DNA of 64,000 bases. It comes from Candidatus Binatia bacterium (GTDB taxonomy: Bacteria; Desulfobacterota; Binatia; Bin18). The notes beneath the pieces are model-generated. The model did not search any database. It saw only the letters and a program-made list of their open reading frames with translations, and was not told the origin of the DNA. The position numbers and the translations under genes were made by a program. The stretch covers positions 32,001-96,000 of the forward strand of contig CAXXHG010000024.1 in assembly GCA_963666315.2 (NCBI GenBank), written 5' to 3'. Shown here piece after piece: positions 1-12,119 of the stretch (the stretch's first letter is position 1; every line of letters starts with the position of its first letter).

Positions 1-1213
1 CTCTGTTTTGGCGCGGTGTTCTTTTTCGTGGTACCCTCGTTGTAACTTTTTCGCGATGAATCGTTTGATTTGCCCGTTATAAGGTCTTTGAAGCTTCTTG
101 GGGCATCGTCGCCTTGGACACTGCGCAGATGGTCGAGCTGCGCACGGAGATAGGACTCGGCTGAGGCACGGCTGTTGCCGCTGATCGCCCGTACTGCGTC
201 AAGCGGCTGGTTTTCCACGATTACTTTCTGGGTCATTCACGTGCCCTTCAAATCGTGGAGCCAGAGCCCGACGATGCCTGTTTTTTTCCGGGCCTGGCGG
301 AAGGGCCACTCGACTTTGCTGTATGCGACCGGTTGCCCGGCGGGCGCCAGAAATAGGCGGTTGCTCAGGGATCTTATTTTTTTGCCTTTGCGCGCCTCCC
401 AGAGGGTGAGCAAGGTCTCGGCCGCATATTGGCTCAACGGCACGAGACGCGGCTTTTTGGTTTTGGTGTGGGTGGAGGTGACGCGGATAAGCGCCTGGTC
501 AAAGTCGATGGTCGGTGGCATGGGGTCGTTCCACTCACCTGTTGGCCATTCGAGCTGTATCACCTCGTTGGCCCGCATACCTGTCTGACGTTGCAGGATG
601 AGGGGCGGGCGCGCATAGTCGGCATGGCGTCCAATATCTGGGCGAGCTCTTCTGGTGACGCGATACGCGTCCGCTTGTTGTTCTCTTGCTCTAAATGGAT
701 CACTGGGCGTCGGTCGATCTTCCCGCCTTGTTCGGCCAGGATGAACATGGAGCGTAGGAGTGCCAGCTCCCTGTTCATCCTGGCGATGGAAGGGGGGCGT
801 TTGTGACGTGTGATCTGCTGTCCGCGCCACAGTTTGTATTCTGCGACACGACTCGTTGTGACGTCTTCGAGTCGATCTTCTCCGAAGAAGTCTGTGAGTG
901 ATCGTGCGGAATAATGGTCTCTCCTGATGCTGCGTTTGTTGGCGTGGAGGGTCAGCCAGGTCTGCGCCCACTCTGCAAAGGTCAGGTGGTTGCGCTCCTG
1001 CTCTTGTTGCTCACGGTCGAAGTCGAAGCGCTGGGCATTTTGGACCAAGCGGCGGTCACGTTCCTTGAGCGCGAATCTGAGATTGTCGCCGCAGGGAAAG
1101 CGCCGCCGGACTTGTTTCCAGTCACGGAAGGCCACGTAGTACTGGAGGCGCTGCTTGGCGTCTTGAGTTGTGTATTCCTGGGTCGCGATGTGATGGTGTT
1201 TTTTGCGTGGCAT
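1..1213 (-). pseudogene. Tyrosine recombinase/phage integrase, disrupted by a frameshift (~620) and an in-frame TGA (237-239); runs off the window start
   Basis: N-terminal half in ORF 560-1213 (core-binding-like, 'SIARMNRELALLRSMF'). Catalytic half in ORF 237-971 ('TGMRANE', 'TKTKKPRLVPL', 'LHDLKGT'). Reading past the TGA gives 'MTQKVIVENQPLDAVRAISGNSRASAESYLR', which includes a plausible catalytic Tyr. Confidence 0.85.
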
Positions 1214-1560: not shown

Positions 1561-1654
1561 GCCCTGAGCCAAGACCTATGTTTCTAGAAATCGGGGCTAT
1601 CCCTAAAAGGTAATGAGGACGTATCCCTAGAGGAAGCGTCTTTTTGAAGTCTAC

Positions 1655-1790
1655 CGGCTCCCAAACACGGGATTATGATTCCGAGACAGGGCGATGGACG
1701 GCGAAAGATCCGATTCGGTTTGGTGGGAGTGATATTAATCTCTACGAATATGTCTTCAATGATCCGGTAAATGAAGTAGAGTATAAGCCA
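1655..1790 (+). pseudogene. RHS repeat-associated core remnant
   Basis: '[35 protein letters not shown]' matches the RHS core C-terminal signature. The remainder of the gene is absent. Confidence 0.8.
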
Positions 1791-1804
1791 ACCAACGATT
1801 GTCC

Positions 1805-2644
1805 ATGTCGAGCATCTTTTTTATCTTTTTCATTTGGGTCTCAGCCTGTGCCCTTGCTGGCTGCCTGGAATTCAAGGGCGACCCGCCTGAACTGGGTCAC
1901 TATGCCTATGGCCCCGATCAATCTGTAACAAGGTGTGTCTTAAACGAACGACAGGGCAGGGGTGGCGTGACGAATGACGAGCAATCAGAAAGCGGAATTA
2001 CATTCTCCGTCCGAACGCCGGTCAATTATGACCCCACGCTCTCTCATCCGCTCCTCATGGTATACGCCCCTGCTGGATCGAGCCGTTTTCGCTCCGAGCG
2101 TTTTACTGGTCTGACTTTTGCAGCCACTGCGGCTGGGTTTGTGGTCGCCTACGCGGATGCGCGCCGACTCTCGCTCGACGGTATTCCGGACCTGGGGACT
2201 ATCCCTCAGCTCATTGCAAAAAAATGGTGTATCGATGAAAAGCGCATCTATCTGACTGGCCATTCCGATGGCGGCACGGTTGCGCTTGCTCTCGCGCTCT
2301 TAGACGAGACGCGCCATATCCCGGCTGCTATTGCTCCGAGCGCGGCTGGATTCACGGAGGCGGATTTAGAAACGTTTATGTGTCCAGACGCGCTGCCCGC
2401 TATGATTTTGCACAGTGCCGATGATCAGCTTTTCCCTGGGTACGGAGCGGAAATCGCTTCTTGGTTGGCCGCTTGTAATGGATGTCAGGCGCATCCCGGT
2501 GAAAAGGACGAAAACGGGTGTATGACCTACTCCGGCTGCGAGGAGGGAAGGCAGACTGTGTATTGTGAAGGAACAGGCGCGCATAGTGTATGGCCCACTC
2601 TCGATACCGTACTCCTTTCTTTTTTCGCGGGCAAACCTCAGTAG
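1805..2644 (+). CDS. PHB-depolymerase/LpqC-family alpha/beta-hydrolase, predicted lipoprotein
   Basis: Lipobox 'LAGC'; '[15 protein letters not shown]' nucleophile elbow; 'ILHSADD' Asp region; 'GAHSVWP' His; 'NGC' motif. Confidence 0.8.
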
Positions 2645-2862: not shown

Positions 2863-3450
2863 ATGAGTAGTGCCAGCCGTATCTTCTTTTCTCTCTTGTT
2901 GCTGACAGTGATTGGTTGCTTAGGCTCCCCTGTCGCGTGGGCGCATCGAGACAGAGGACCGGATGACCCCTGTCGACGGGAAATCGGAACTTCGCTCCTC
3001 CATATCACCGTCTACCAGACCCAGTTTGACCCCGTGGCTGAATATTGTGAAGAAGTCCCACACGCGGGGAAGGCCTTCTTAGTTGTAGATGTGACCCCGG
3101 ATCTGTGGGGGATGCCCATCGGGGTGGAACTCGTTGCGACAAATGAAGTCGGCCAGACGCGTACTATCCTCTCGCTGCCTACACAAGTGTATGAGCGCGG
3201 GGTGGCCAATACGGAAGTGGTTTTGAACCCTGAGGTCAGCTATGAGGTGCGCGTTGTCTTAGAGCTGGGATCCGACCGAGAACCGCAGGAATTTTCATTT
3301 CCCTTTCAGGTTGCAGCATGGTATAAGGCCCTGATCATCCCAGCCCTGATTGTGCTCGGGCTGATCGTTATCATGGCCGTATCCGTAGTTCGGTATAATG
3401 TAGTCTCGCGGCGGGAAGAAGCGCTAGCGGAACAAATGGATGCAGTATAA
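2863..3450 (+). CDS. PmoD/AmoD-family periplasmic copper protein, copy 1
   Basis: Signal peptide AWA|H; 'DPC-x9-HITVYQ...EYCEEVPHAGKAFLVVD' PmoD/AmoD pattern; C-terminal TM anchor. Confidence 0.8.
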   Translation: MSSASRIFFSLLLLTVIGCLGSPVAWAHRDRGPDDPCRREIGTSLLHITVYQTQFDPVAEYCEEVPHAGKAFLVVDVTPDLWGMPIGVELVATNEVGQTRTILSLPTQVYERGVANTEVVLNPEVSYEVRVVLELGSDREPQEFSFPFQVAAWYKALIIPALIVLGLIVIMAVSVVRYNVVSRREEALAEQMDAV

Positions 3451-3513: not shown

Positions 3514-4362
3514 ATGGCTCAGGCACAAGCTGTGCAAAAGGCACCAAAGGGTTCTGGCGACGGCTCGATGACGAGTGGTAGCCCTGTCAATCCGATGGAC
3601 TGGTCGGTTGGATGGCATCCGTTGTTCTGGGGCTGCGGGCTCATCATGTTAGCCAACGTCTTTTTCTGGTACTGGAATTACGCCTTCATGTTAACGGCTG
3701 GACTCAACTCGGCCAGTCCGGAATTCAGCACGTATTACATGACGCTGTTCTGGGGCGAGCTCATCGTCTTAGGCATCTTTAGTGGCGTATGGTTTGGCTG
3801 GTTGATACGGACCGGCCGTGCCATTCAAGGCCAAGAGTGCTCGCCTGCCGAAGAGGTACGCCGGATCGCAATTTTGTGGAGCCTCATTGGCGCGCTGAGT
3901 CTGTCCGTTTATATGGAAGCGAGCTTCTGGCCCAACTGGGATGGATCTTGGCATCAAACCATGGTGCGGGACACCGCGCTCACGCCGACCCATATTCCGA
4001 TGTTTTATTTCTTCTTCCCCCTGTCGGCCATTCTGGCCATCGGCACCTATGTCTACGGGCGGTATTACATTCCCGCTCTGTACGGTAAAGACAAGGGCTT
4101 TCCGTGGTCGTTCTTCTTGTTGATTAGTGCGTGTGCGCTCGAAGTTATGGGTGTTGCGTTCAACGAATGGGGCCATAGTCTGTGGATCTCGGAGGAGATT
4201 TTCTCCGTGCCCTTTCACTGGCCGTTCGTCATCTATGGCTGGCTTGCCGCCGGCATGTTCGCCGTGTGGGGTGAGACTGCCCTGCGTCTATACGAGGTTG
4301 AGAAGATTGAGGAGGACGCCAATTTAGAATCCTCGCTTGAGCCGAACATGGTCGCTGACTGA
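3514..4362 (+). CDS. pmoC: Copper membrane monooxygenase subunit C (PmoC/AmoC family)
   Basis: 'DGSWHQTMVRDTALTPTH' (CuC Asp/His/His) and 'NEWGHSLWISEEIFSVPFHW' (CuD Asn/His/His); RBS GGAGG. Confidence 0.95.
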   Translation: MAQAQAVQKAPKGSGDGSMTSGSPVNPMDWSVGWHPLFWGCGLIMLANVFFWYWNYAFMLTAGLNSASPEFSTYYMTLFWGELIVLGIFSGVWFGWLIRTGRAIQGQECSPAEEVRRIAILWSLIGALSLSVYMEASFWPNWDGSWHQTMVRDTALTPTHIPMFYFFFPLSAILAIGTYVYGRYYIPALYGKDKGFPWSFFLLISACALEVMGVAFNEWGHSLWISEEIFSVPFHWPFVIYGWLAAGMFAVWGETALRLYEVEKIEEDANLESSLEPNMVAD

Positions 4363-4442: not shown

Positions 4443-5246
4443 ATGGCGGCAGGCACGACAACGGTAACGGACCTTGCAGACGCAGCCGAACGGCAAAAAC
4501 GGCTCGAACTCAAGGAACTGCTCAACAAAAAATACAAATGGCTAGACTGGAAGTGGGACCTCGTCTTCTGGACCACGGCCATCTTCGTGGTTGCCGGCGC
4601 TGGCGATATTACCAAGCAGTTGTTCGCCGGCGATTGGGACTTCTGGACTGACTGGAAAGATCAGCAGTGGTGGCCGGTTATCACGGCCTTTGCCACCATC
4701 ATCATCCCGTCCGCGCTCCAATACATTCAGTGGGCAGCCTGGCGGTTTCCGACCGGCGCGACCTACACCGCCTGCTGCATGTTTATGGCGGCCTGGGTGG
4801 GGCGTTATTTTCAGTGGGATTTGGCAACCCACTACCCGCTGAACTTTGTGTGGCCCATCTCCTTGGTGTGCGCTGGGATCTTGATGGACTGGACCCTGAT
4901 GAAGACGAAGAGCTTCATCCTGACATCACTCGTTGGCGCGCATGTCTGGGCGATCGCGGTGTGGGCGTATAATTATGTTCCGTTGGCTGCCTTTCTGCAG
5001 CCGGCCCATTTTATGGACCATGTAATCACGATCGCGGATGTCCAAGGAATCGCGTATATCCGGTCACAGACGCCGGAATACCTGCGCATGATCGAGCGCG
5101 GTGCGTTGCGCAGTTTCCTGGGTGAGACCCAGTATGTCTCGCTGGTGTTCGGTGGTACTGTCGCGTTTCTCGGATACTGGGTGGGTCAGTTCATTGGCCG
5201 CTACTTGGCAATTTGGCCGATTCGACGCTACTTGAAAACCTTGTGA
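4443..5246 (+). CDS. pmoA: Copper membrane monooxygenase subunit A (PmoA/AmoA family), divergent
   Basis: 'GDWDFWTDWKDQQWWP', 'RFPTGAT', 'YPLNFVWP', 'YIRSQTPEYLRMIERGALRSF'. Confidence 0.95.
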   Translation: MAAGTTTVTDLADAAERQKRLELKELLNKKYKWLDWKWDLVFWTTAIFVVAGAGDITKQLFAGDWDFWTDWKDQQWWPVITAFATIIIPSALQYIQWAAWRFPTGATYTACCMFMAAWVGRYFQWDLATHYPLNFVWPISLVCAGILMDWTLMKTKSFILTSLVGAHVWAIAVWAYNYVPLAAFLQPAHFMDHVITIADVQGIAYIRSQTPEYLRMIERGALRSFLGETQYVSLVFGGTVAFLGYWVGQFIGRYLAIWPIRRYLKTL

Positions 5247-5253
5247 GACGGCT

Positions 5254-5589
5254 ATGATGAGCGTAGCGAAATCGGTCAGAAATTGCATAGTGCCGTTTGT
5301 GTTCATGTGTATTGCGCCCTCGCTGGCGCATGCGCACGGGATGGACGCGGCGGCGATGGCGCCACCTCTTATTACCTCCGGGCTGCTGGCGTTTGTGTGT
5401 TATTGGTTGGTGATGTTGTGGCCTGCGTCAAAAAGAGAAGGCGCCTGGATGAATGGGTCTGGGGCTGCGCAGCCCTCGGAAAAGTTTCAGACCATACGCA
5501 TTAAGCGCAAGCCGCGCCTGCGTGTCATAGAGACGAGCAGGCAGCGCGAGGACGACCAGCCGGCGACAAGGAGAGCGGCCGATGGCTAG
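5254..5589 (+). CDS. Small single-pass membrane protein between the A and B subunits (unknown family)
   Basis: Starts 8 nt after the pmoA stop and overlaps the pmoB start by 8 nt. Signal-like 'AHA|HGMDAAAM', TM 'LITSGLLAFVCYWLVMLW', basic tail. Confidence 0.75.
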   Translation: MMSVAKSVRNCIVPFVFMCIAPSLAHAHGMDAAAMAPPLITSGLLAFVCYWLVMLWPASKREGAWMNGSGAAQPSEKFQTIRIKRKPRLRVIETSRQREDDQPATRRAADG

Positions 5590-6829
5590 GCGATTCGTCA
5601 TCAGCGTCTGCACGCTGGCTCTTGCCGGACTTATCAGTGTCCCCAGGGTGTTCGCTCATGGTGAAGCCGCTGACGAGCCTTTTCTCAAGAACATGACCAC
5701 GGCGTTTTTCAATGTATCGATTTCTCCCACCGAAATCGAAGTCGGAGAGCCTATTCGCATTACTGGTTCCGTGAAGATCTTGGAGATCTGGCCGCATACC
5801 TTAGATACACCGGAAATGGCCTCCATTATTCCCGTCGTGCCTGGTCCGGTGTTTGTCTTGAGGGAACGGCTGGTCAATGGGCAGGCCTCGATAGGTTCGT
5901 TCTTCGCGCAAAAAGGCGGCATTTATGAGTTCGACATGGAGCTCTTGGGCAAAGAACCCGGAGACTGGCACGTCCATCCCGGTATAGCCATCCAGGGGAC
6001 GGGCACGCTGCTGGGACCAGGTGAATGGGTCCGAGTCAAACCCAGCGCTACGCCGCTTGAATTTCCGGTGACCTTGCTGTCCGGGGAGACGATCGAACTC
6101 AGCACGTATGGCGGTCAATTCGTCTGGTGGTGGTCATTTGCCGGATTCTTGCTCGGTGTCGTCTGGATATTGTACTGGACGCTGAACAAAAGGACGGTGG
6201 CAACCCTTGCCGTAACTATCCAGCTTCCGGTCAATGATGATGCGCCCGACATTGGCTTGATCACCCCGCGTGACCACATGTGGATGAATGTCATTGCCGG
6301 CGTCACCTTGGTGATGCTCGTTGTCGGCTGGACCTATGCCACAACAAATGCACCGGTCCGGTGGCCGCAGCAGACCGACTGGTTTACGCCCCGCTTTATT
6401 TCTTCGGGCGAAAAGATGGCCGAGGTGCATACCAACGGAGCAACCTTTGATGAGGCGTCCGACACCCTGGAAATGAAGCTCCAGGTTACGAATGTGCTAG
6501 ACAGCGAAATCCAGCTCAAGCAACTCATCGTGGCCATGGCGACGTTTGTGAACGGCGGCGAGCAGGAGCAAGCCCAAGCCGGGCCGAGTGATTTCGTTGG
6601 CGCTCTGGAAGTGTCGCCGAATGGAACCGTTGCCCCTGGAGAAACCAAAGATCTCACGTTGACGGTAACGAGCACGCTGTTCAGTCAAGAACGGCTGATA
6701 CCTCAGAACGCCCCGCAGCAATTTCTTGGTGGAGTCCTCCGGTTCGAGAATGCGCAGGGCGAGCATGAATTAGTGACGGTTCGTTCGGGTGTCATATCAA
6801 CACAGTTCCGTTCGACCTACCGCCCGTAA
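5582..6829 (+). CDS. pmoB: Copper membrane monooxygenase subunit B (PmoB/AmoB family)
   Basis: Signal 'VFA|HGEAADEPF' (N-terminal His), 'PGDWHVHP' (CuB His-x-His), 'LLGPGEW', two TM helices, second cupredoxin domain 'VAPGETK'. Confidence 0.95.
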   Translation: MARRFVISVCTLALAGLISVPRVFAHGEAADEPFLKNMTTAFFNVSISPTEIEVGEPIRITGSVKILEIWPHTLDTPEMASIIPVVPGPVFVLRERLVNGQASIGSFFAQKGGIYEFDMELLGKEPGDWHVHPGIAIQGTGTLLGPGEWVRVKPSATPLEFPVTLLSGETIELSTYGGQFVWWWSFAGFLLGVVWILYWTLNKRTVATLAVTIQLPVNDDAPDIGLITPRDHMWMNVIAGVTLVMLVVGWTYATTNAPVRWPQQTDWFTPRFISSGEKMAEVHTNGATFDEASDTLEMKLQVTNVLDSEIQLKQLIVAMATFVNGGEQEQAQAGPSDFVGALEVSPNGTVAPGETKDLTLTVTSTLFSQERLIPQNAPQQFLGGVLRFENAQGEHELVTVRSGVISTQFRSTYRP

Positions 6830-6882: not shown

Positions 6883-7464
6883 TTGGTGGGCAGTATCTTG
6901 TCAGTGTTCTCTCTCGTCGCTATCTTCCTCGTGCCAATATCGGCCTGGGCGCACGGTGGCGTCGCGATCGACATGGACCCGTGCGTGCAGCGTGCCGGCG
7001 CCTATCTGGTCCATTTTTCTGCGTACCAACCGCAAGTGAATGCAATCGAGGAATTCTGTAGTAGCGTTCCGCAAACGGGCAATGTGATCCTCGTTTTCGA
7101 TCTGATTGATCCCGAACTGCGCAAGAAATCGGCTGCCGTTCGCATTGTTGAAGAGACCGGGGCGGCTGAACCTCGTCTGCTGCTCGATATCCCGCCAAAA
7201 ATCTATCCCAATGGGGTCGTGAATGCTGAGGTTAGGCTTGATACGCCGGGCCGGTATACGGCCATTCTGACGATTGATGATGTCGACGACTCGATCGAAT
7301 TTCCTATCCGCGTGGCGGTGCTCTCGACCACGATGATGGTGCTGATCGGTGGCATCGTGGTCGGCAGTGGTGTGGGCTATTATGCGGTCAGTCGGAAACA
7401 GGGTTGGCCTCCATTCAAAGCAAAAAACGAGTCGTCACTCCGGTTGGTGAAAGGGGAAGGATGA
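6883..7464 (+). CDS. pmoD: PmoD/AmoD(AmoE)-family protein, copy 2
   Basis: 'AWA|HGGVAIDMDPC...VHFSAYQP...EEFCSSVPQTGNVILVFDLID'; C-terminal TM anchor; lies directly after the B subunit. Confidence 0.88.
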   Translation: MVGSILSVFSLVAIFLVPISAWAHGGVAIDMDPCVQRAGAYLVHFSAYQPQVNAIEEFCSSVPQTGNVILVFDLIDPELRKKSAAVRIVEETGAAEPRLLLDIPPKIYPNGVVNAEVRLDTPGRYTAILTIDDVDDSIEFPIRVAVLSTTMMVLIGGIVVGSGVGYYAVSRKQGWPPFKAKNESSLRLVKGEG

Positions 7465-7664: not shown

Positions 7665-7730
7665 GACCACGACTATCCTTTGTCCCTTCCCCCCTTTCCC
7701 TTACGCGTTCCTCACAGTACATGGTGGACG

Positions 7731-9425
7731 ATGCTGGTGCGTCGTTTGCTCTTTGTTTTTCTCTTGTGTGGCCTCGTCGCGGGTAGTGCGATCTTTGTCG
7801 TGCCGCGCTCCTGGCTGCCCGCTCCACTCAAAAACCTGGCGTATCGCTATATTGGTGAAACAGCCTATCGAGCCCCCCCGGAAAGTCGTCACATTGATCC
7901 GGTGCCAGTCGAGCCGTTTTGTCTGGATAAGCATCCGGACTGGCGTAAACGCCAGACGGTTGAAGGCGTAAGCATAGAAGAATCGCCTGTGTGTGATCCG
8001 GATAATCCAGCCGAAGTCGCCGCTTTTGTCAAAGGCACGAACAATATTTCTGTGCATACATTGATGCAGACACGGCTGACGCCGACTACGGTGCTGAAAG
8101 AGAACGACGTGGACGGTGATGGCGATCCGGATGAGATCCATATCCGGTTCGAGGTAGTGGAGTTAAACGGGTACTCGCCGGATGATCCTGCTCCCTTTCC
8201 GGCGTATGCCATCGCTCCCGGAGTACAGCCCGGCCTGTGGGTATTTGCTCCGAAATCGCGCGGCATGGCGACCGAAAATTTTGCAAGCGAGGACGCCCAC
8301 GCCACTCTCCGCGCCCCGTCGCCGGTTATCCGCATTGAACAGGGCGACACGCTACGCGTGACGTTGGAAAATACCCACTATCTGCCGCATACGATACATT
8401 TCCACGGAGTTGACCATCCCTTCGTCGATGCCGCCGGGGAGGGCAATGACGGTGTCCCTATTACGAGTGAAATGCCGGTCGCGCCGGGTGAGAGCCGAAT
8501 ATATGAAATGACTCCACGTCAGACCGGGACCATGTTTTATCACTGCCATGTCCAACCCCAGGTGCATATTCTCATGGGACTGCAAGGCATGTTTGTGGTT
8601 GAGGAGAATCGGCCGAATAATTGGCTACAGACCTTAAACGTCGGCGCTGGTCGGGTCCGGCATTCGTCGGTAGCTATCCGTGAGACTTTTGATCGCGAGT
8701 TTGATCTGCACTATCAGGATATCGATCGTTCGCTGAATAATATGATTCAGACTGCCAATGATCCGCGTCTGATCGCGCAAGCAACGAATCGGCGGTACGA
8801 TATCACGGATCACAGTCCGGACTACTTCTTACTGAACGGGCGCTCGTTTCCGTACACGATGCGTGAATCCCTTATTGTGGTTGTGCCTGATGAAGATATC
8901 AAACTGCGCGTATTGAACGGTGGTGCCGAAGGGCTGTCGCTCCATACGCACGGACATAAAGTCACGATTACCCACTATGACGGCGTCGAGCATAATCCGG
9001 CTGCGCAAATCACGCGCGATGTCGTCTGGGTCAGCCCCGCCCAGCGGGTGGACCTGCACCTCAAAACAATAAACGACGGGCTGCATAATTACGGCGCAGG
9101 TATCTGGCTCCTACACGACCACAAGGAAAAGGCGATTACGACCGACGGCATCAACCCTGGTGGGAATATCAGCGCCATTGTGTACAAAGCGTTTCTGGGC
9201 GAAGCCGGCCGGCCTCAAACCCAGGGCATGGATTGGGCGCCGTTTTTTACCGAAGAGTATTACCAGAAGAAAATTCCGATCTGGGCCGGATTGGATGAGA
9301 GAGGACTGCTTGGAGAGGCCGGTGGTGAGCCTTTCCCTTTCAGCTATGCGCTCTTGTGGGGCCTGGGCATAGGGCTCTTACTCAGCGGTGCGTTTGCGCT
9401 CGGTCGGTCCGTGCGGCGAGCGTGA
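7731..9425 (+). CDS. Multicopper oxidase, two-domain type-C-like, with N-terminal extension and C-terminal membrane anchor
   Basis: Domain 1 'HTIHFHG' and 'YHCHVQPQVHILMGL' (T1 site); domain 2 'LHTHGH' and 'WLLHDH' (no T1 Cys); hydrophobic N- and C-termini. Confidence 0.88.
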   Translation: MLVRRLLFVFLLCGLVAGSAIFVVPRSWLPAPLKNLAYRYIGETAYRAPPESRHIDPVPVEPFCLDKHPDWRKRQTVEGVSIEESPVCDPDNPAEVAAFVKGTNNISVHTLMQTRLTPTTVLKENDVDGDGDPDEIHIRFEVVELNGYSPDDPAPFPAYAIAPGVQPGLWVFAPKSRGMATENFASEDAHATLRAPSPVIRIEQGDTLRVTLENTHYLPHTIHFHGVDHPFVDAAGEGNDGVPITSEMPVAPGESRIYEMTPRQTGTMFYHCHVQPQVHILMGLQGMFVVEENRPNNWLQTLNVGAGRVRHSSVAIRETFDREFDLHYQDIDRSLNNMIQTANDPRLIAQATNRRYDITDHSPDYFLLNGRSFPYTMRESLIVVVPDEDIKLRVLNGGAEGLSLHTHGHKVTITHYDGVEHNPAAQITRDVVWVSPAQRVDLHLKTINDGLHNYGAGIWLLHDHKEKAITTDGINPGGNISAIVYKAFLGEAGRPQTQGMDWAPFFTEEYYQKKIPIWAGLDERGLLGEAGGEPFPFSYALLWGLGIGLLLSGAFALGRSVRRA

Positions 9426-9438
9426 AGGGAAGCGTAGT

Positions 9439-10155
9439 ATGGGGGTACATTTTCAAAAGATCGTGCGGAAAATCATGAGAGTACGAAAAGGGCAGCCACA
9501 TAGGGCTGCCCCTACACTGCTTGTGCTCATTATCTCGGTGCTTCTTTCAAGTCTAGTCAGTTCGGCCCAAGAGCATCAGCACCACCCGATGCAGCATAAT
9601 ATGCAGCTAGATGAGACCGGCATGGTCATGAACGAAAACACCGACCAGTTGCCGCGTGGCTGTCCTCGTATTGCGGGCGAGCAATCAATTACTGTCCGCG
9701 CAGGGAAAGAATTTGCCTCTCCAGGCAGCATGTTTTCTTATGATCAGCATGAATGGCATGTCGAGCCGTGTACCAAACTCACCGTGACGCTTGAGAATAC
9801 GGACAACGTCCGCCATCAGTGGATGCTGCACGGCCTGCCGCGCTATGTGTATCTGCAGGGCATGTTCACTTTAGAGGTGGCCGGCCGAGGGCAACGCACG
9901 GGTACGTTTATCCTCCCCGCAGGCAACAAAACCTATCTGGTTCACTGCGACGTGTCCCAGCATATGGAAAAAGGCATGAAAGCGCAGCTGAAGGTCGGCA
10001 CTGGGGACGGCGATTTGCCGAGTATTCCCGGCATAACCGGCCCACGTGTGTATGATACGTATCCCCTGGTCTGGAACTGGTGGACGCATGGGGCTTTGCT
10101 ACTGACGGGGATAGTCAGTGTGGTTTTTGTCGGCAGGCACTTGCATATTTTCTGA
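9439..10155 (+). CDS. Membrane-anchored cupredoxin (type-1 blue copper)
   Basis: 'HQWMLHG' and 'YLVHCDVSQHMEKGM' (H-C-H-M); His/Met-rich N-terminus 'QEHQHHPMQHNM'; C-terminal TM. Start codon uncertain (9439 or 9475). Confidence 0.85.
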   Translation: MGVHFQKIVRKIMRVRKGQPHRAAPTLLVLIISVLLSSLVSSAQEHQHHPMQHNMQLDETGMVMNENTDQLPRGCPRIAGEQSITVRAGKEFASPGSMFSYDQHEWHVEPCTKLTVTLENTDNVRHQWMLHGLPRYVYLQGMFTLEVAGRGQRTGTFILPAGNKTYLVHCDVSQHMEKGMKAQLKVGTGDGDLPSIPGITGPRVYDTYPLVWNWWTHGALLLTGIVSVVFVGRHLHIF

Positions 10156-10189
10156 GAGATCTGAAGCTCGCGAGCTTGACTGCCTTCCC

Positions 10190-10218
10190 TTGACCTTCAA
10201 AATAAAAATGAGTAGGGT
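10190..10218 (+). promoter_or_regulatory. Sigma70-like promoter of the PQQ dehydrogenase
   Basis: TTGACC-N17-TAGGGT. Confidence 0.5.
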
Positions 10219-10236
10219 TCGACCACATTCGTGTAA

Positions 10237-10271
10237 TAAGACATCGCAGTAAGACATCACAGTAAGACATG
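10237..10271 (+). repeat. 13-bp direct repeat x2.7 in the PQQ-ADH leader
   Basis: TAAGACATCGCAG TAAGACATCACAG TAAGACATG. Confidence 0.85.
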
Positions 10272-10290
10272 ATTTGGGGAGGAATAACCC

Positions 10291-12003
10291 ATGCGAGATT
10301 TCTGGTTGCGGGGATTGCTATATTTTACCCTCGCTCTCGTCCTTGTATCGCCCTCGACTCTGTATGCCGATCATCATGGACAGAGTGACCATGCCCTCAA
10401 GCCGGTCACGCATGAGCGCTTGGTTAATAGTGCCGCCAATTATGCTGACTGGCTGATGTACGGCGGGAATTATGAAGGCTGGCGTTTCAGCGCACTCGCC
10501 GACATCGACCGTCAAAATGTAAAGAAGCTCCAGGCTGCGTGGATTTTTCAGACCGGCGTGCCTGCCCAAATGCAGGCTTCGCCCGTGGTGGCCGATGGCG
10601 TGATGTATGTGACTGCGGCGTATAACAAAATTTTCGCCTTAGACGCGGCGACGGGCAAGCCGCTGTGGAAATACGACCATTCATTGCCGGATGATATGCG
10701 CATATGCTGTGGTCCCGGCAACCGTGGCGTCGCGCTTGCCGGGGATAAAGTCATCATGGCCACCCTGGATGCGCGTGTTGTGGCGCTGGATCGCAAAACC
10801 GGCGAGGTGGTGTGGAATACAGAGGCCGACAACTACGCCCGAGGCTTCAGCTTCACGCTCGCGCCGCTGATTGTCAAAGACAAAGTCATCGTCGGCATTG
10901 CCGGTGGTGAATACGGCATACGCGGTTATATCGACGCGTATGATGTTGAGACCGGAGAGCGTCAGTGGCGGCGTTACACTGTCCCCGACGAGGGTGAGCC
11001 CGGAGTCGAAACCTGGGCGGGCGACTCATATAAAAACGGCGGGGCCCCGGCTTGGGTGACCGGTTCGTATGACGCTGACCTGGACCTTGTATATTGGGCT
11101 ACCGGAAACCCTGCGCCGGACTGGAACGGTGATGGACGTGAAGGGGATAACCTGTACTCCAACTCCGTTCTGGCACTTGATCCGGAGACGGGCGAGGTCA
11201 AATGGTATTTCCAGTTCACCCCGCACGATGTCTGGGATTATGACGGCAATACCGGCCTGTTCCTGCTTGACGTTATGCGTAGTGGTCAATCTGTCAAAGC
11301 CTTGGCCCAGCCGAATCGTAATGGCTTCATGTATGTGCTGGATCGCACCGATGGAAAATTCCTGCACGGCGCGCAATATGTCGAACAGCTGAACTGGGCG
11401 AAGGGGCTAGATGAAAAGGGCCGCCCACTGGTTGACCCCAAATATGTTCCCATGAAAGGCGGCAATCTGGAACTGATCTGTCCGGGCAATGCGGGCGGCC
11501 AAAATGGGTCGTACGCTGCGGCCTATAGTCCGCGTGTTAACCTCATTTTTGTGCCGACGATTGAGAGCTGCGCCAAAATGGAAAAAGCGAAGTCTATTTT
11601 CATCAAAGGCATTCCGTTCTGGGGCGGCGGTCCTGGCCAAACGCAAGGCGACCTGGGGGTCGCGTATGGCCATGTCTCAGCTATTGATCCTACCAGCGGC
11701 GAAGTAAAATGGCGCTATAAGGACGAGTGGCCCATGATGGGTGGTGCACTTGCGACCGCAGGCGGATTAGTTTTTACCGGGAACCAACAGGGCTATGCGC
11801 TCGCGCTAGACGAGGCGACTGGAAAAGTCTTATGGAAGTTCCAAACCGGCTCGGCTGTCCGCGGGCAACCGATTACGTATAAAGTTGGTGGCAAGCAATA
11901 TGTGGCCGTGCCGAGTGGGGCCGGCGGCTTGGTCGTCGATATTGTGGGAAAATACCCGCACACGACACTCGGCAGTTCGGTTGCCGTGTTTGCGCTGCCT
12001 TAG
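10291..12003 (+). CDS. PQQ-dependent alcohol dehydrogenase (methanol/ethanol family), probable lanthanide type
   Basis: Signal peptide; vicinal 'CCG'; 'GGEYG' Glu; 'TGNPAP' Asn; 'PHDVWDYDG' D-x-D; Trp-docking propeller motifs; no cytochrome c domain. Confidence 0.92.
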   Translation: MRDFWLRGLLYFTLALVLVSPSTLYADHHGQSDHALKPVTHERLVNSAANYADWLMYGGNYEGWRFSALADIDRQNVKKLQAAWIFQTGVPAQMQASPVVADGVMYVTAAYNKIFALDAATGKPLWKYDHSLPDDMRICCGPGNRGVALAGDKVIMATLDARVVALDRKTGEVVWNTEADNYARGFSFTLAPLIVKDKVIVGIAGGEYGIRGYIDAYDVETGERQWRRYTVPDEGEPGVETWAGDSYKNGGAPAWVTGSYDADLDLVYWATGNPAPDWNGDGREGDNLYSNSVLALDPETGEVKWYFQFTPHDVWDYDGNTGLFLLDVMRSGQSVKALAQPNRNGFMYVLDRTDGKFLHGAQYVEQLNWAKGLDEKGRPLVDPKYVPMKGGNLELICPGNAGGQNGSYAAAYSPRVNLIFVPTIESCAKMEKAKSIFIKGIPFWGGGPGQTQGDLGVAYGHVSAIDPTSGEVKWRYKDEWPMMGGALATAGGLVFTGNQQGYALALDEATGKVLWKFQTGSAVRGQPITYKVGGKQYVAVPSGAGGLVVDIVGKYPHTTLGSSVAVFALP

Positions 12004-12093: not shown

Positions 12094-12119
12094 GTAGGGG
12101 CGGCCGACCGGTCGCCCCT
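12094..12119. repeat. GTAG-type REP palindrome between convergent genes
   Basis: GTAGGGGCGGCCGACCGGTCGCCCCT; relatives at 9490, 54431, 57282 and 61335. Confidence 0.7.

Follow-up and report, generated by a model that had tools for sequence, protein, structure and literature searches.

The window, a stretch of 64,000 nucleotides, corresponds to positions 32001-96000 of contig C24 in genome G000 (4.99 Mb, 92% complete). It carries a CuMMO operon, the features of which are collected in Table 1. Our analysis concerns X, a 111-aa ORF with an ATG start in the ORF listing of the window, located between the genes of subunits A and B. The preliminary description of this DNA had presented X as tightly packed between these two genes, and this is what is found: xmoA ends at 5246, leaving a 7-nt gap before X, and the ATG of xmoB (5582) lies within the last codons of X, such that the two genes overlap by 8 nt.

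The Pfam profiles of subunits A, B and C are matched over nearly their full length. None of the three reaches the NCBIfam equivalog cut-offs for bacterial AMO and pMMO, and the CuMMO of the window should thus be considered divergent. Its subunit A is 61-96% identical to the subunit A of 46 other loci. In alignments of 21 sequences, D143, H147, H160, N217, H221 and H235 of xmoC and H26 (preceded by A25), H130 and H132 of xmoB are invariant. Of the two PmoD-like genes, D1 is kept upstream of C in most loci with the long form of X (see below). It matches PmoD in a phmmer search against the PDB (6cpd_A, E 2e-4), finds no match in Pfam or NCBIfam and is about 30% identical to D2. The operon also carries a multicopper oxidase gene and, because of this gene and the two PmoD-like copper-protein genes, can be regarded as a copper-handling neighbourhood. 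A second CAB operon is found in the same genome on contig C43, where the A-B gap measures 40 nt and contains no X.

A scan of the window for promoters and terminators returned counts at chance level. RNA-library contigs of relatives (88-95% identity) span both junctions of X, namely A-X in run X8 (5028-5456) and X-B in run X4 (5407-5689). The runs contained just 0.05-0.11 of the sampled words. With DNA carry-over in the libraries being possible, these bridging contigs should be taken as a weak hint of A-X-B co-transcription.

Table 1 Features of the CuMMO operon and regions of X. Positions are those of the window; residue numbers refer to the X precursor.
Feature	Position	Strand	Basis or remark
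PmoD-like D1	2863..3450	+	upstream of xmoC; signal peptide, periplasmic domain, C-terminal TM helix
xmoC, CuMMO subunit C	3514..4362	+	PF04896 AmoC, E 2.3e-44
xmoA, CuMMO subunit A	4443..5246	+	PF02461 AMO, E 1e-55
X, whole ORF	5254..5589	+	ORF listing
X residues 1-27, predicted cleavable signal peptide ending A-H-A	5254..5334	+	sequence; AF2 helix 2-27
X residues 28-40, predicted periplasmic N-terminal peptide, His28-Gly29 to Pro37-Pro38 at its end	5335..5373	+	conserved columns
X residues 41-57, TM helix with conserved T41, G43, C49, Y50, W51, L55, W56, P57	5374..5424	+	conserved columns; AF2 helix 32-67
X residues 58-80, variable cytoplasmic linker	5425..5493	+	length differs among homologues; pLDDT <50 from residue 68
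X residues 81-93, conserved basic motif IRIKRKPRLRVIE	5494..5532	+	conserved columns; long-form members only
X residues 94-111 and stop codon	5533..5589	+	holds Shine-Dalgarno-like AAGGAGAG (5568-5575) and xmoB ATG (5582-5584)
xmoB, CuMMO subunit B	5582..6829	+	PF04744 Monooxygenase_B, E 3.4e-71, profile positions 1-378/380
PmoD-like D2	6883..7464	+	downstream of xmoB; PmoD 6cpd_A, E 2.1e-7 (phmmer against PDB)

Anatomy of X and selection on its sequence

A signal-peptide-like N-terminus, the residues from H28-G29-M30 onward, one TM segment and a basic tail, all reported in the preliminary description, can be read directly from the translation, with cleavage being predicted. The n-region contains K6 and R9 and is followed by a hydrophobic core and by A25-H26-A27. 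According to the -3/-1 rule, signal peptidase I would cleave after A27, leaving His28 as residue 1 of the mature protein. In most of the 168 stored X sequences, the His is preceded by A/V/S-x-A, and most show A before the predicted cut and HG after it. The positive-inside rule predicts an N-out/C-in topology, the tail (residues 58-111) containing 13 K/R vs 7 D/E. AlphaFold2, supplied with a 47-row alignment, returned a low-confidence model (mean pLDDT 58.8) with helices at residues 2-27 and 32-67 and disorder elsewhere. Being small, with a single hydrophobic stretch (41-57) after the signal peptide and no enzymatic domain, X fits the class of accessory single-TM proteins.

A word-indexed search yielded 73 homologues of X, 61-195 aa in length, none of which has a Pfam domain or an informative name. 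A profile search that covered 1.84 billion cluster representatives (50% identity) gave 98 matches at E <= 1e-3, 82 of them at E <= 1e-10. Across 26 members, among which are those of the most divergent loci, A27, H28, P38, Y50, W51, L55, W56 and P57 are invariant (26/26) and G29, P37, T41 and L45 are nearly so. Among 47 closer members, K84 is invariant, R88, L89, R90 and I92 are nearly invariant and C49 is conserved. The invariant residues remain so at an overall identity of about 33%. A TM helix this conserved suggests that it packs specifically against other helices. The Met residues of HGMDAAAM, on the other hand, vary across the family, with other members carrying HGGIAGPDELGPP or HGGGGGPEVVLPP, and the only general potential ligands on the periplasmic side are the N-terminal His and an acidic position before Pro-Pro.

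In a codon alignment of 28 copies, the entropy of X is 0.73, 0.68 and 1.14 at codon positions 1, 2 and 3, respectively. For the more distant pairs, pairwise dN/dS is 0.19-0.42 in the 11 for which the ratio is defined (dS is saturated in one further pair); it is 0.58-0.74 between the window and its two nearest relatives and 0.40 between those relatives. When pN/pS was pooled over the same 17 sequences, X scored 0.53, as compared to 0.25 for B, 0.19 for C and 0.11 for A. X is thus overall much less constrained than the three subunits, which counts against its reading as a subunit. Resolved by region, pN/pS is 0.74 for the signal peptide (residues 1-27), 0.33 for the N-terminus and TM helix (28-58), 0.85 for the linker (59-79), 0.31 for the basic motif (80-93) and 0.62 for the tail (94-111). 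Judged by these ratios, purifying selection acts on the N-terminus with the TM helix and on the basic motif, and the rest of X appears near-neutral. The conserved residues of the tail coincide with the ribosome-binding site and start of xmoB, and their conservation may lie at the nucleotide level.

Stops or frameshifts in related operons had been named in the preliminary description as one observation that would speak against its proposal for X. A relative of the window's subunit A is encoded in 46 GTDB-species loci, of which L046 ends within A and cannot be scored for X. Where a Binatia-type locus includes both A and B (L001-L030, L043, L044), the two genes are separated by an X ORF in every case (32 of 32), with the frame intact in 31. 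In L025, whose contig name carries cov_2.15, X is interrupted by one in-frame stop, 7 codons from its end. X is a real gene under selection. That it is instead a chance open frame, or merely reflects a constraint on the A-B spacer, is highly improbable: many overlapping ORFs do occur in the GC-rich DNA here and the signal and linker regions are almost neutral, yet the codon-position pattern, the frame kept in all loci other than L025 and the residues that do not change even in the most divergent members all argue for a gene, and the ORFs in alternative frames vary in length from locus to locus.

The X-B junction and the distribution of X

Two forms of X should be distinguished. The long form, found in the window and 27 loci, has the basic motif. 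The overlap with B measures 8 nt in 25 of 31 loci in addition to the window and 1 nt in L043, and L002 presents the same junction sequence with an irregular B start. The short form, of 77-104 aa, is found in four basal Binataceae-type loci; it has no basic motif and ends 41-93 nt before B. As the short forms keep just the signal peptide, the N-terminal His, the short periplasmic peptide and the TM helix, these elements constitute the family core. Since xmoB has its ribosome-binding site and start codon within the final codons of X, the two genes are considered translationally coupled. A search for fused or longer forms of X gave none at E <= 0.001, a result of little weight. Among the cluster representatives, there is a 235-aa fragment (P0091) in which X continues in frame into the start of B. 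Two other composite entries, P0116 (X with a transposase-like piece) and P0144 (a garbled end of A, followed by X), were taken as assembly or gene-calling artefacts.

Such a junction could also be read as regulatory. X would then be a translated leader controlling xmoB, i.e. a membrane-inserted monitoring peptide of the kind known from SecM, MifM and VemP, in which the basic motif modulates the progress of the ribosome and ties translation of B to targeting. The architecture of X would suit such a leader: a signal for export or insertion is followed by a variable linker and then by a conserved motif (residues 81-93, pN/pS 0.31), which precedes by 18-30 codons the stop overlapping the start of B. 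The RNA fold of the X-B junction is, however, without significant structure (z -0.73), the four short-form operons keep the His and TM core even though they have neither motif nor overlap, and the most conserved element, the TM helix, is one that a leader does not need. We thus consider a leader role very unlikely.

In the preliminary description, X was seen as specific to one clade, with A and B normally adjacent elsewhere, and the wider set of loci agrees on both counts. As opposed to the 32 Binatia-type loci, X finds no match in 13 sister-clade loci labelled Actinomycetota, Chloroflexota, Dormiibacterota, Gemmatimonadales and, in one case, Proteobacteria (A identity 61-80%), where A and B are 37-141 nt apart, with no ORF in between (the 473 nt of L037 is artefactual, the B hit being split there). 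On a subunit-A tree of 46 rows, obtained by a quick maximum-likelihood search, the 33 X-bearing rows make up one side of a branch with an SH-aLRT of 99, and the distribution of X therefore corresponds to one change among these rows.

At the genome level, a phylum-level sample was poor in relatives (4 of 401 genomes matched, two of them weakly) and was superseded by a search at the class level. Of 401 Binatia-class genomes, 82 gave hits to X, 88 to subunit A and 81 to the two together; the unpublished genome G595 is included in the counts, with one X hit and one A hit. X and subunit A are confined to families f1, f112, f113 and f5, i.e. 4 of the 20 GTDB families, and neither X nor CuMMO was found in the 243 genomes of the other 16. 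Most X hits (84/105) follow an A hit of the same strand at a distance of 42-395 nt, and 83 of 127 A hits have X behind them. The 44 A hits without X comprise 11 that are canonical-like (256-379 bits), 31 of a second type (194-212 bits) and 2 cut by contig ends. As the canonical-like copies and the second operon on C43 lack X, it is not a general requirement of CuMMO. All four metagenome loci fetched via the most divergent X members read C-A-X-B, one of them with two tandem copies of X. Genomic co-occurrence of X with its CuMMO thus holds, the exception being 20 orphan hits in one genus.

These orphans represent a paralogue, X2, of 72-82 aa, which has the His and TM module of X and was found in 20 genomes of the same genus; the genome of the window gave no X2 hit. 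X2 lies at least 0.7 Mb from any CuMMO gene in the five genomes checked, and in four genomes it is placed between an aminopeptidase-like gene and fatty-acid-oxidation-like genes. One genome (G529) has X2 together with a sole CuMMO operon, the X-bearing one. In light of X2, and of G529 in particular, the His and TM module can exist outside the operon and is not in one-to-one relation with CuMMO copies. The proposal that X2 serves a second, X-less CuMMO operon was rejected as a simple rule, as G529 has X2 and no second operon, and as three genomes (G422, G489 and G565) have a second operon and no X2 hit.

X2 is the main caveat to the reading of X as a CuMMO component. Its location amid aminopeptidase-like and fatty-acid-oxidation-like genes, far from CuMMO in the five genomes checked, would suit a small membrane protein that merely resides in the operon and serves another purpose, such as membrane or envelope homeostasis, as would the lack of detectable homology of X to known CuMMO components. 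Against this stand the position of X just downstream of A in most of its hits, the finding of X and CuMMO only in the same four families, the retention of that position down to about 33% identity and the embedding of the B start codon in X. An unrelated role should accordingly be seen as improbable, if less so than the leader role.

Relation to known families and accessory subunits

X belongs to no family in Pfam or NCBIfam. When 26 X members were compared with Pfam at E <= 1, only sub-threshold hydrophobic noise was obtained (MgtE, DUF7555, LapA), and a search with X in the ESM Atlas gave no usable hit. The profile of these 26 members, compared with all PDB chains of at least 20 residues, gave two chance-level hits (E 2 and 6.5). 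The PDB set included the native-membrane pMMO/AMO entries 9CL5, 9CL6 and 9LEG, and in this profile search, X showed no sequence homology to their solved accessory helices; the archaeal entry 9XJ2 is possibly not among the chains compared. Archaeal AmoX, AmoY and AmoZ, which were reportedly predicted in an earlier original paper, likewise gave no match to X in Pfam, NCBIfam or a PDB set that may omit the archaeal AMO entry. In the case of the cupredoxin-like domain of PmoD/AmoD/AmoE, X gave no hit to 6cpd, whereas its neighbours D1 and D2 do match.

PmoD/AmoD/AmoE (PDB 6CPD) are nonetheless comparable to X in being periplasm-facing, membrane-anchored and encoded in the CuMMO operon, with a proposed role in copper handling or assembly. 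The periplasmic part of PmoD is, however, a folded cupredoxin-like domain of about 120 residues, and the protein is anchored at its C-terminus, whereas X, which shows no similarity to PmoD, would expose some 13 periplasmic residues. A further parallel is CydX of cytochrome bd, an in-operon single-TM microprotein of another membrane oxidase. Like X, CydX is a small single-helix protein encoded within the operon of its enzyme; the enzyme is, however, unrelated and proteins of the CydX type have neither a signal peptide nor an N-terminal His, such that the analogy is one of logic only.

The precedent of extra small subunits and helices, to which the preliminary description had appealed, is real and has grown stronger (PMC11725843; bioRxiv 10.64898/2026.08.31.748207). 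In the passages of Tucci & Rosenzweig (PNAS 2024, PMC11725843) that deal with them, supernumerary TM helices adjoin PmoC and AmoC, and are assigned to a 23-residue protein in the pMMO of Methylocystis sp. Rockwell and to an unannotated 46-residue ORF in the AMO of Nitrosomonas europaea. Like X, these helices are small, lineage-specific and single-TM, with no catalytic domain, and the role suggested for them there is in array formation or activity. They were seen by cryoEM in the bound state, whereas X is known from its gene and its binding would have to be deduced; and X is encoded between A and B, whereas the passages on the pMMO/AMO helices are silent on where these are encoded. X is also longer (about 84 mature residues) and differs in its predicted cleavable signal peptide, invariant N-terminal His and long basic tail.

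According to the relevant parts of the second source (bioRxiv 10.64898/2026.08.31.748207), archaeal AMO has several accessory membrane subunits, some of them single-TM, with AmoX, AmoY and AmoZ being renamed AmoD, AmoF and AmoG and AmoE and AmoH being added. As with X, these are small, extra membrane subunits of one CuMMO lineage that are genetically linked to it, and they are described as stabilising the complex. They come, however, from another domain of life and no sequence relation to X was found. The archaeal single-TM AmoG is said in this source to compensate for a helix that is absent from archaeal AmoB, whereas X would be additive, as A, B and C are full-length with respect to Pfam. 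On the same grounds, the idea that X replaces a missing helix was rejected.

The gene itself has been recorded before. Murphy et al. 2021, in the passages concerned, list it as 'x, hypothetical protein' in 'CAxB or CAxxB' operons and place most such sequences in a clade affiliated with Actinobacteria/SAR324, the presumed substrates of which are short alkanes. Within the scope of our survey of the literature on Binatia/Binatota CuMMO, which did not extend to figures and supplements, no characterisation of X beyond that of Murphy et al. 2021 was found. X is thus already in print, recorded there as a hypothetical protein. When the comparisons above are combined, X presents as a new, sequence-unrelated family of candidate accessory components in one CuMMO clade.

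Possible roles of X

CuMMOs oxidise methane, ammonia and short alkanes, and most of their activity is lost on purification. Recent native-membrane structures have revealed that small, previously unknown helices belong to the working enzyme. We consider it quite probable that X works with CuMMO in some way. Its most likely form would be that of a clade-specific accessory membrane component, namely a stable supernumerary subunit of the Binatia-type (Actinobacteria/SAR324-affiliated) CuMMO, a reading for which, by analogy with the known accessory helices, we see the chances as evenly balanced; a transient copper-loading or assembly factor comes next.

As a supernumerary subunit, X would be made from one transcript with A and B, its translation being coupled to that of B through the ribosome-binding site and start of xmoB inside X. 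Sec export and cleavage by signal peptidase would leave a mature protein of about 84 residues with a free N-terminal His, comprising about 13 periplasmic residues, a single conserved TM helix and a cytoplasmic tail that is basic and disordered. The TM helix would pack on the membrane domain of the XmoCAB protomer, in analogy to the way in which lineage-specific single helices pack in Methylocystis pMMO, Nitrosomonas AMO and archaeal AMO, and the N-terminal His, at the periplasmic membrane surface, could help to bind copper or hand it over. A complex prediction of XmoC 26-282, XmoA 15-267, XmoB 26-415 and X 28-111 gave ipSAE values of 0.02 and 0.00; being those of a control-free run with 21-row alignments, they speak neither for nor against binding.

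Much of this evidence is shared by the second form, in which X acts transiently in biogenesis, either as a membrane-tethered N-terminal-His peptide that loads periplasmic copper onto XmoB/XmoC or as a chaperone of B insertion that then leaves. The operon position and the coupling speak for such a factor as they do for a subunit, and the copper-handling neighbourhood of D1, D2 and the multicopper oxidase suits it. The invariant N-terminal His resembles the N-terminal-His sites of PmoB, whose CuB has such a copper site in the account of PMC11725843. Moreover, the orphan X2 is more easily reconciled with a factor acting in trans than with a stoichiometric subunit. Yet, with translation of the two genes coupled, X should be made in about the same amount as B, and this would be unusual for a catalytic chaperone. 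It is also the TM helix, and not a metal-binding motif, that is most strongly conserved, and conservation on the periplasmic side extends to one His and one acidic position and no further. A biogenesis factor is, accordingly, a possible role to be kept in mind, to be ranked behind that of a supernumerary subunit.

As for copper, A27-H28, on which an N-terminal-His copper site would depend, is invariant in 26/26 members, with His expected from the sequence as mature residue 1. No second conserved His was found in the periplasmic segment in either the 26- or the 47-member alignment, and any copper site would thus need ligands from another subunit. The variation of the Met residues behind the copper-binding idea of the preliminary description counts against a copper role. 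A more specific proposal, which we regard as a rather unlikely one, is that the free N-terminal His of the short periplasmic peptide reaches the copper site of XmoB or builds an intersubunit, histidine-brace-like copper site, X then being the counterpart of the unidentified density in Methylococcus capsulatus pMMO. If true, X would be the first genetically identified counterpart of that density and would directly tune the copper loading or reactivity of a CuMMO.

The bacterial accessory helices are not, in the passages of PMC11725843 that describe them, said to be encoded within the structural operon, and their genetics and function are therefore hard to approach. If X is a subunit or loading factor, it would provide a defined gene to include in heterologous CuMMO expression, a test case for the role of accessory helices and, possibly, a novel mode in which an N-terminal His is presented to copper. 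Should it be neither, the operon annotation for this clade is still corrected, from CAB to CAXB. The lineage that carries X is uncultured but widespread, having been reported from sponges, sediments and soils.

Genes flanking the operon in the window

The C-A-X-B genes, in which X is the candidate accessory single-TM protein encoded between xmoA and xmoB, are bordered on either side by one PmoD-like gene (D1 and D2; see table), the two being paralogues of about 30% identity. Both retain the Cys and His residues that align with PmoD; the aligned Met residues are retained in neither. His is the first residue of the predicted mature N-terminus in D1 and D2 too. Genes of this type accompany loci with the long-form X, which carries a basic motif. 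The flanks of the four Binataceae-type loci, whose short-form X lacks that motif, showed none.

When considered together with the operon, the downstream genes (7680-12003) may form a complete oxidation module leading from alkane or methane to alcohol and then to aldehyde. On the 5' side, the translated ORFs and fragments hint that the upstream border (237-2644) could be mobile or rearranged.

Features considered in the analysis
Feature	Location	Position	Remarks
Recombinase/integrase-like ORF fragments	Window	237-1213	Minus strand; judged from translations only
RHS-core-like short fragment	Window	1644-1928	Judged from translation only
Esterase-like ORF	Window	1799-2644	Judged from translation only
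D1, PmoD-like	Window	2863-3450	Match to PDB 6CPD (PmoD), E 2e-4
D2, PmoD-like	Window	6883-7464	Match to PDB 6CPD (PmoD), E 2.1e-7
Multicopper oxidase	Window	7680-9425	Downstream, operon strand
Single-cupredoxin protein	Window	9388-10155	Downstream, operon strand
PQQ-dependent dehydrogenase	Window	10291-12003	Downstream, operon strand
Strong terminator-like hairpin	Window	12096-12119	After PQQ-dependent dehydrogenase gene
Second CuMMO operon (C, A, B)	L051	5284-8325	Same genome, contig C43
Tandem duplication in xmoB	L051	7514-7575	Perfect, 31 nt
X2	L052	5962-6210
X2	L053	6011-6241
X2	L054	5908-6270
X2	L055	6047-6265
Tandem duplicate X genes	L030	6767-7054 and 7026-7340
Tandem duplicate X genes	L058	about 2541-2974

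Second operon and orphan X paralogue

The second CuMMO operon of the same genome has an A-B gap of 40 nt without X. Its xmoB is broken into two ORFs by the frame-shifting duplication; the gene is then a recent pseudogene, unless the split is an artefact of assembly.

An orphan paralogue, X2, is present in 20 genomes of the same genus and was not found in the window's own genome. It shows the same module as X, namely a signal, His-(Arg)-Gly, Pro and a CYW..LWP TM helix, but differs in its short tail. X2 is neighbored by an aminopeptidase-like gene on one side and by fadB-like and dienoyl-CoA-reductase-like genes on the other, and lies at least 0.7 Mb from the nearest CuMMO in the five genomes checked.

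Tandem X genes and a possible X-B fusion

In addition to the two tabulated loci, tandem duplicate X genes are found in three genomes (G786, G764 and G482); such operons correspond to what Murphy et al. 2021 recorded as 'CAxxB'. In a metagenomic fragment of 235 aa (P0091), X reads in frame, with no stop, into the XmoB signal peptide and N-terminal domain. This could be a natural X-B fusion; alternatively, one lineage may have lost the stop codon of X.
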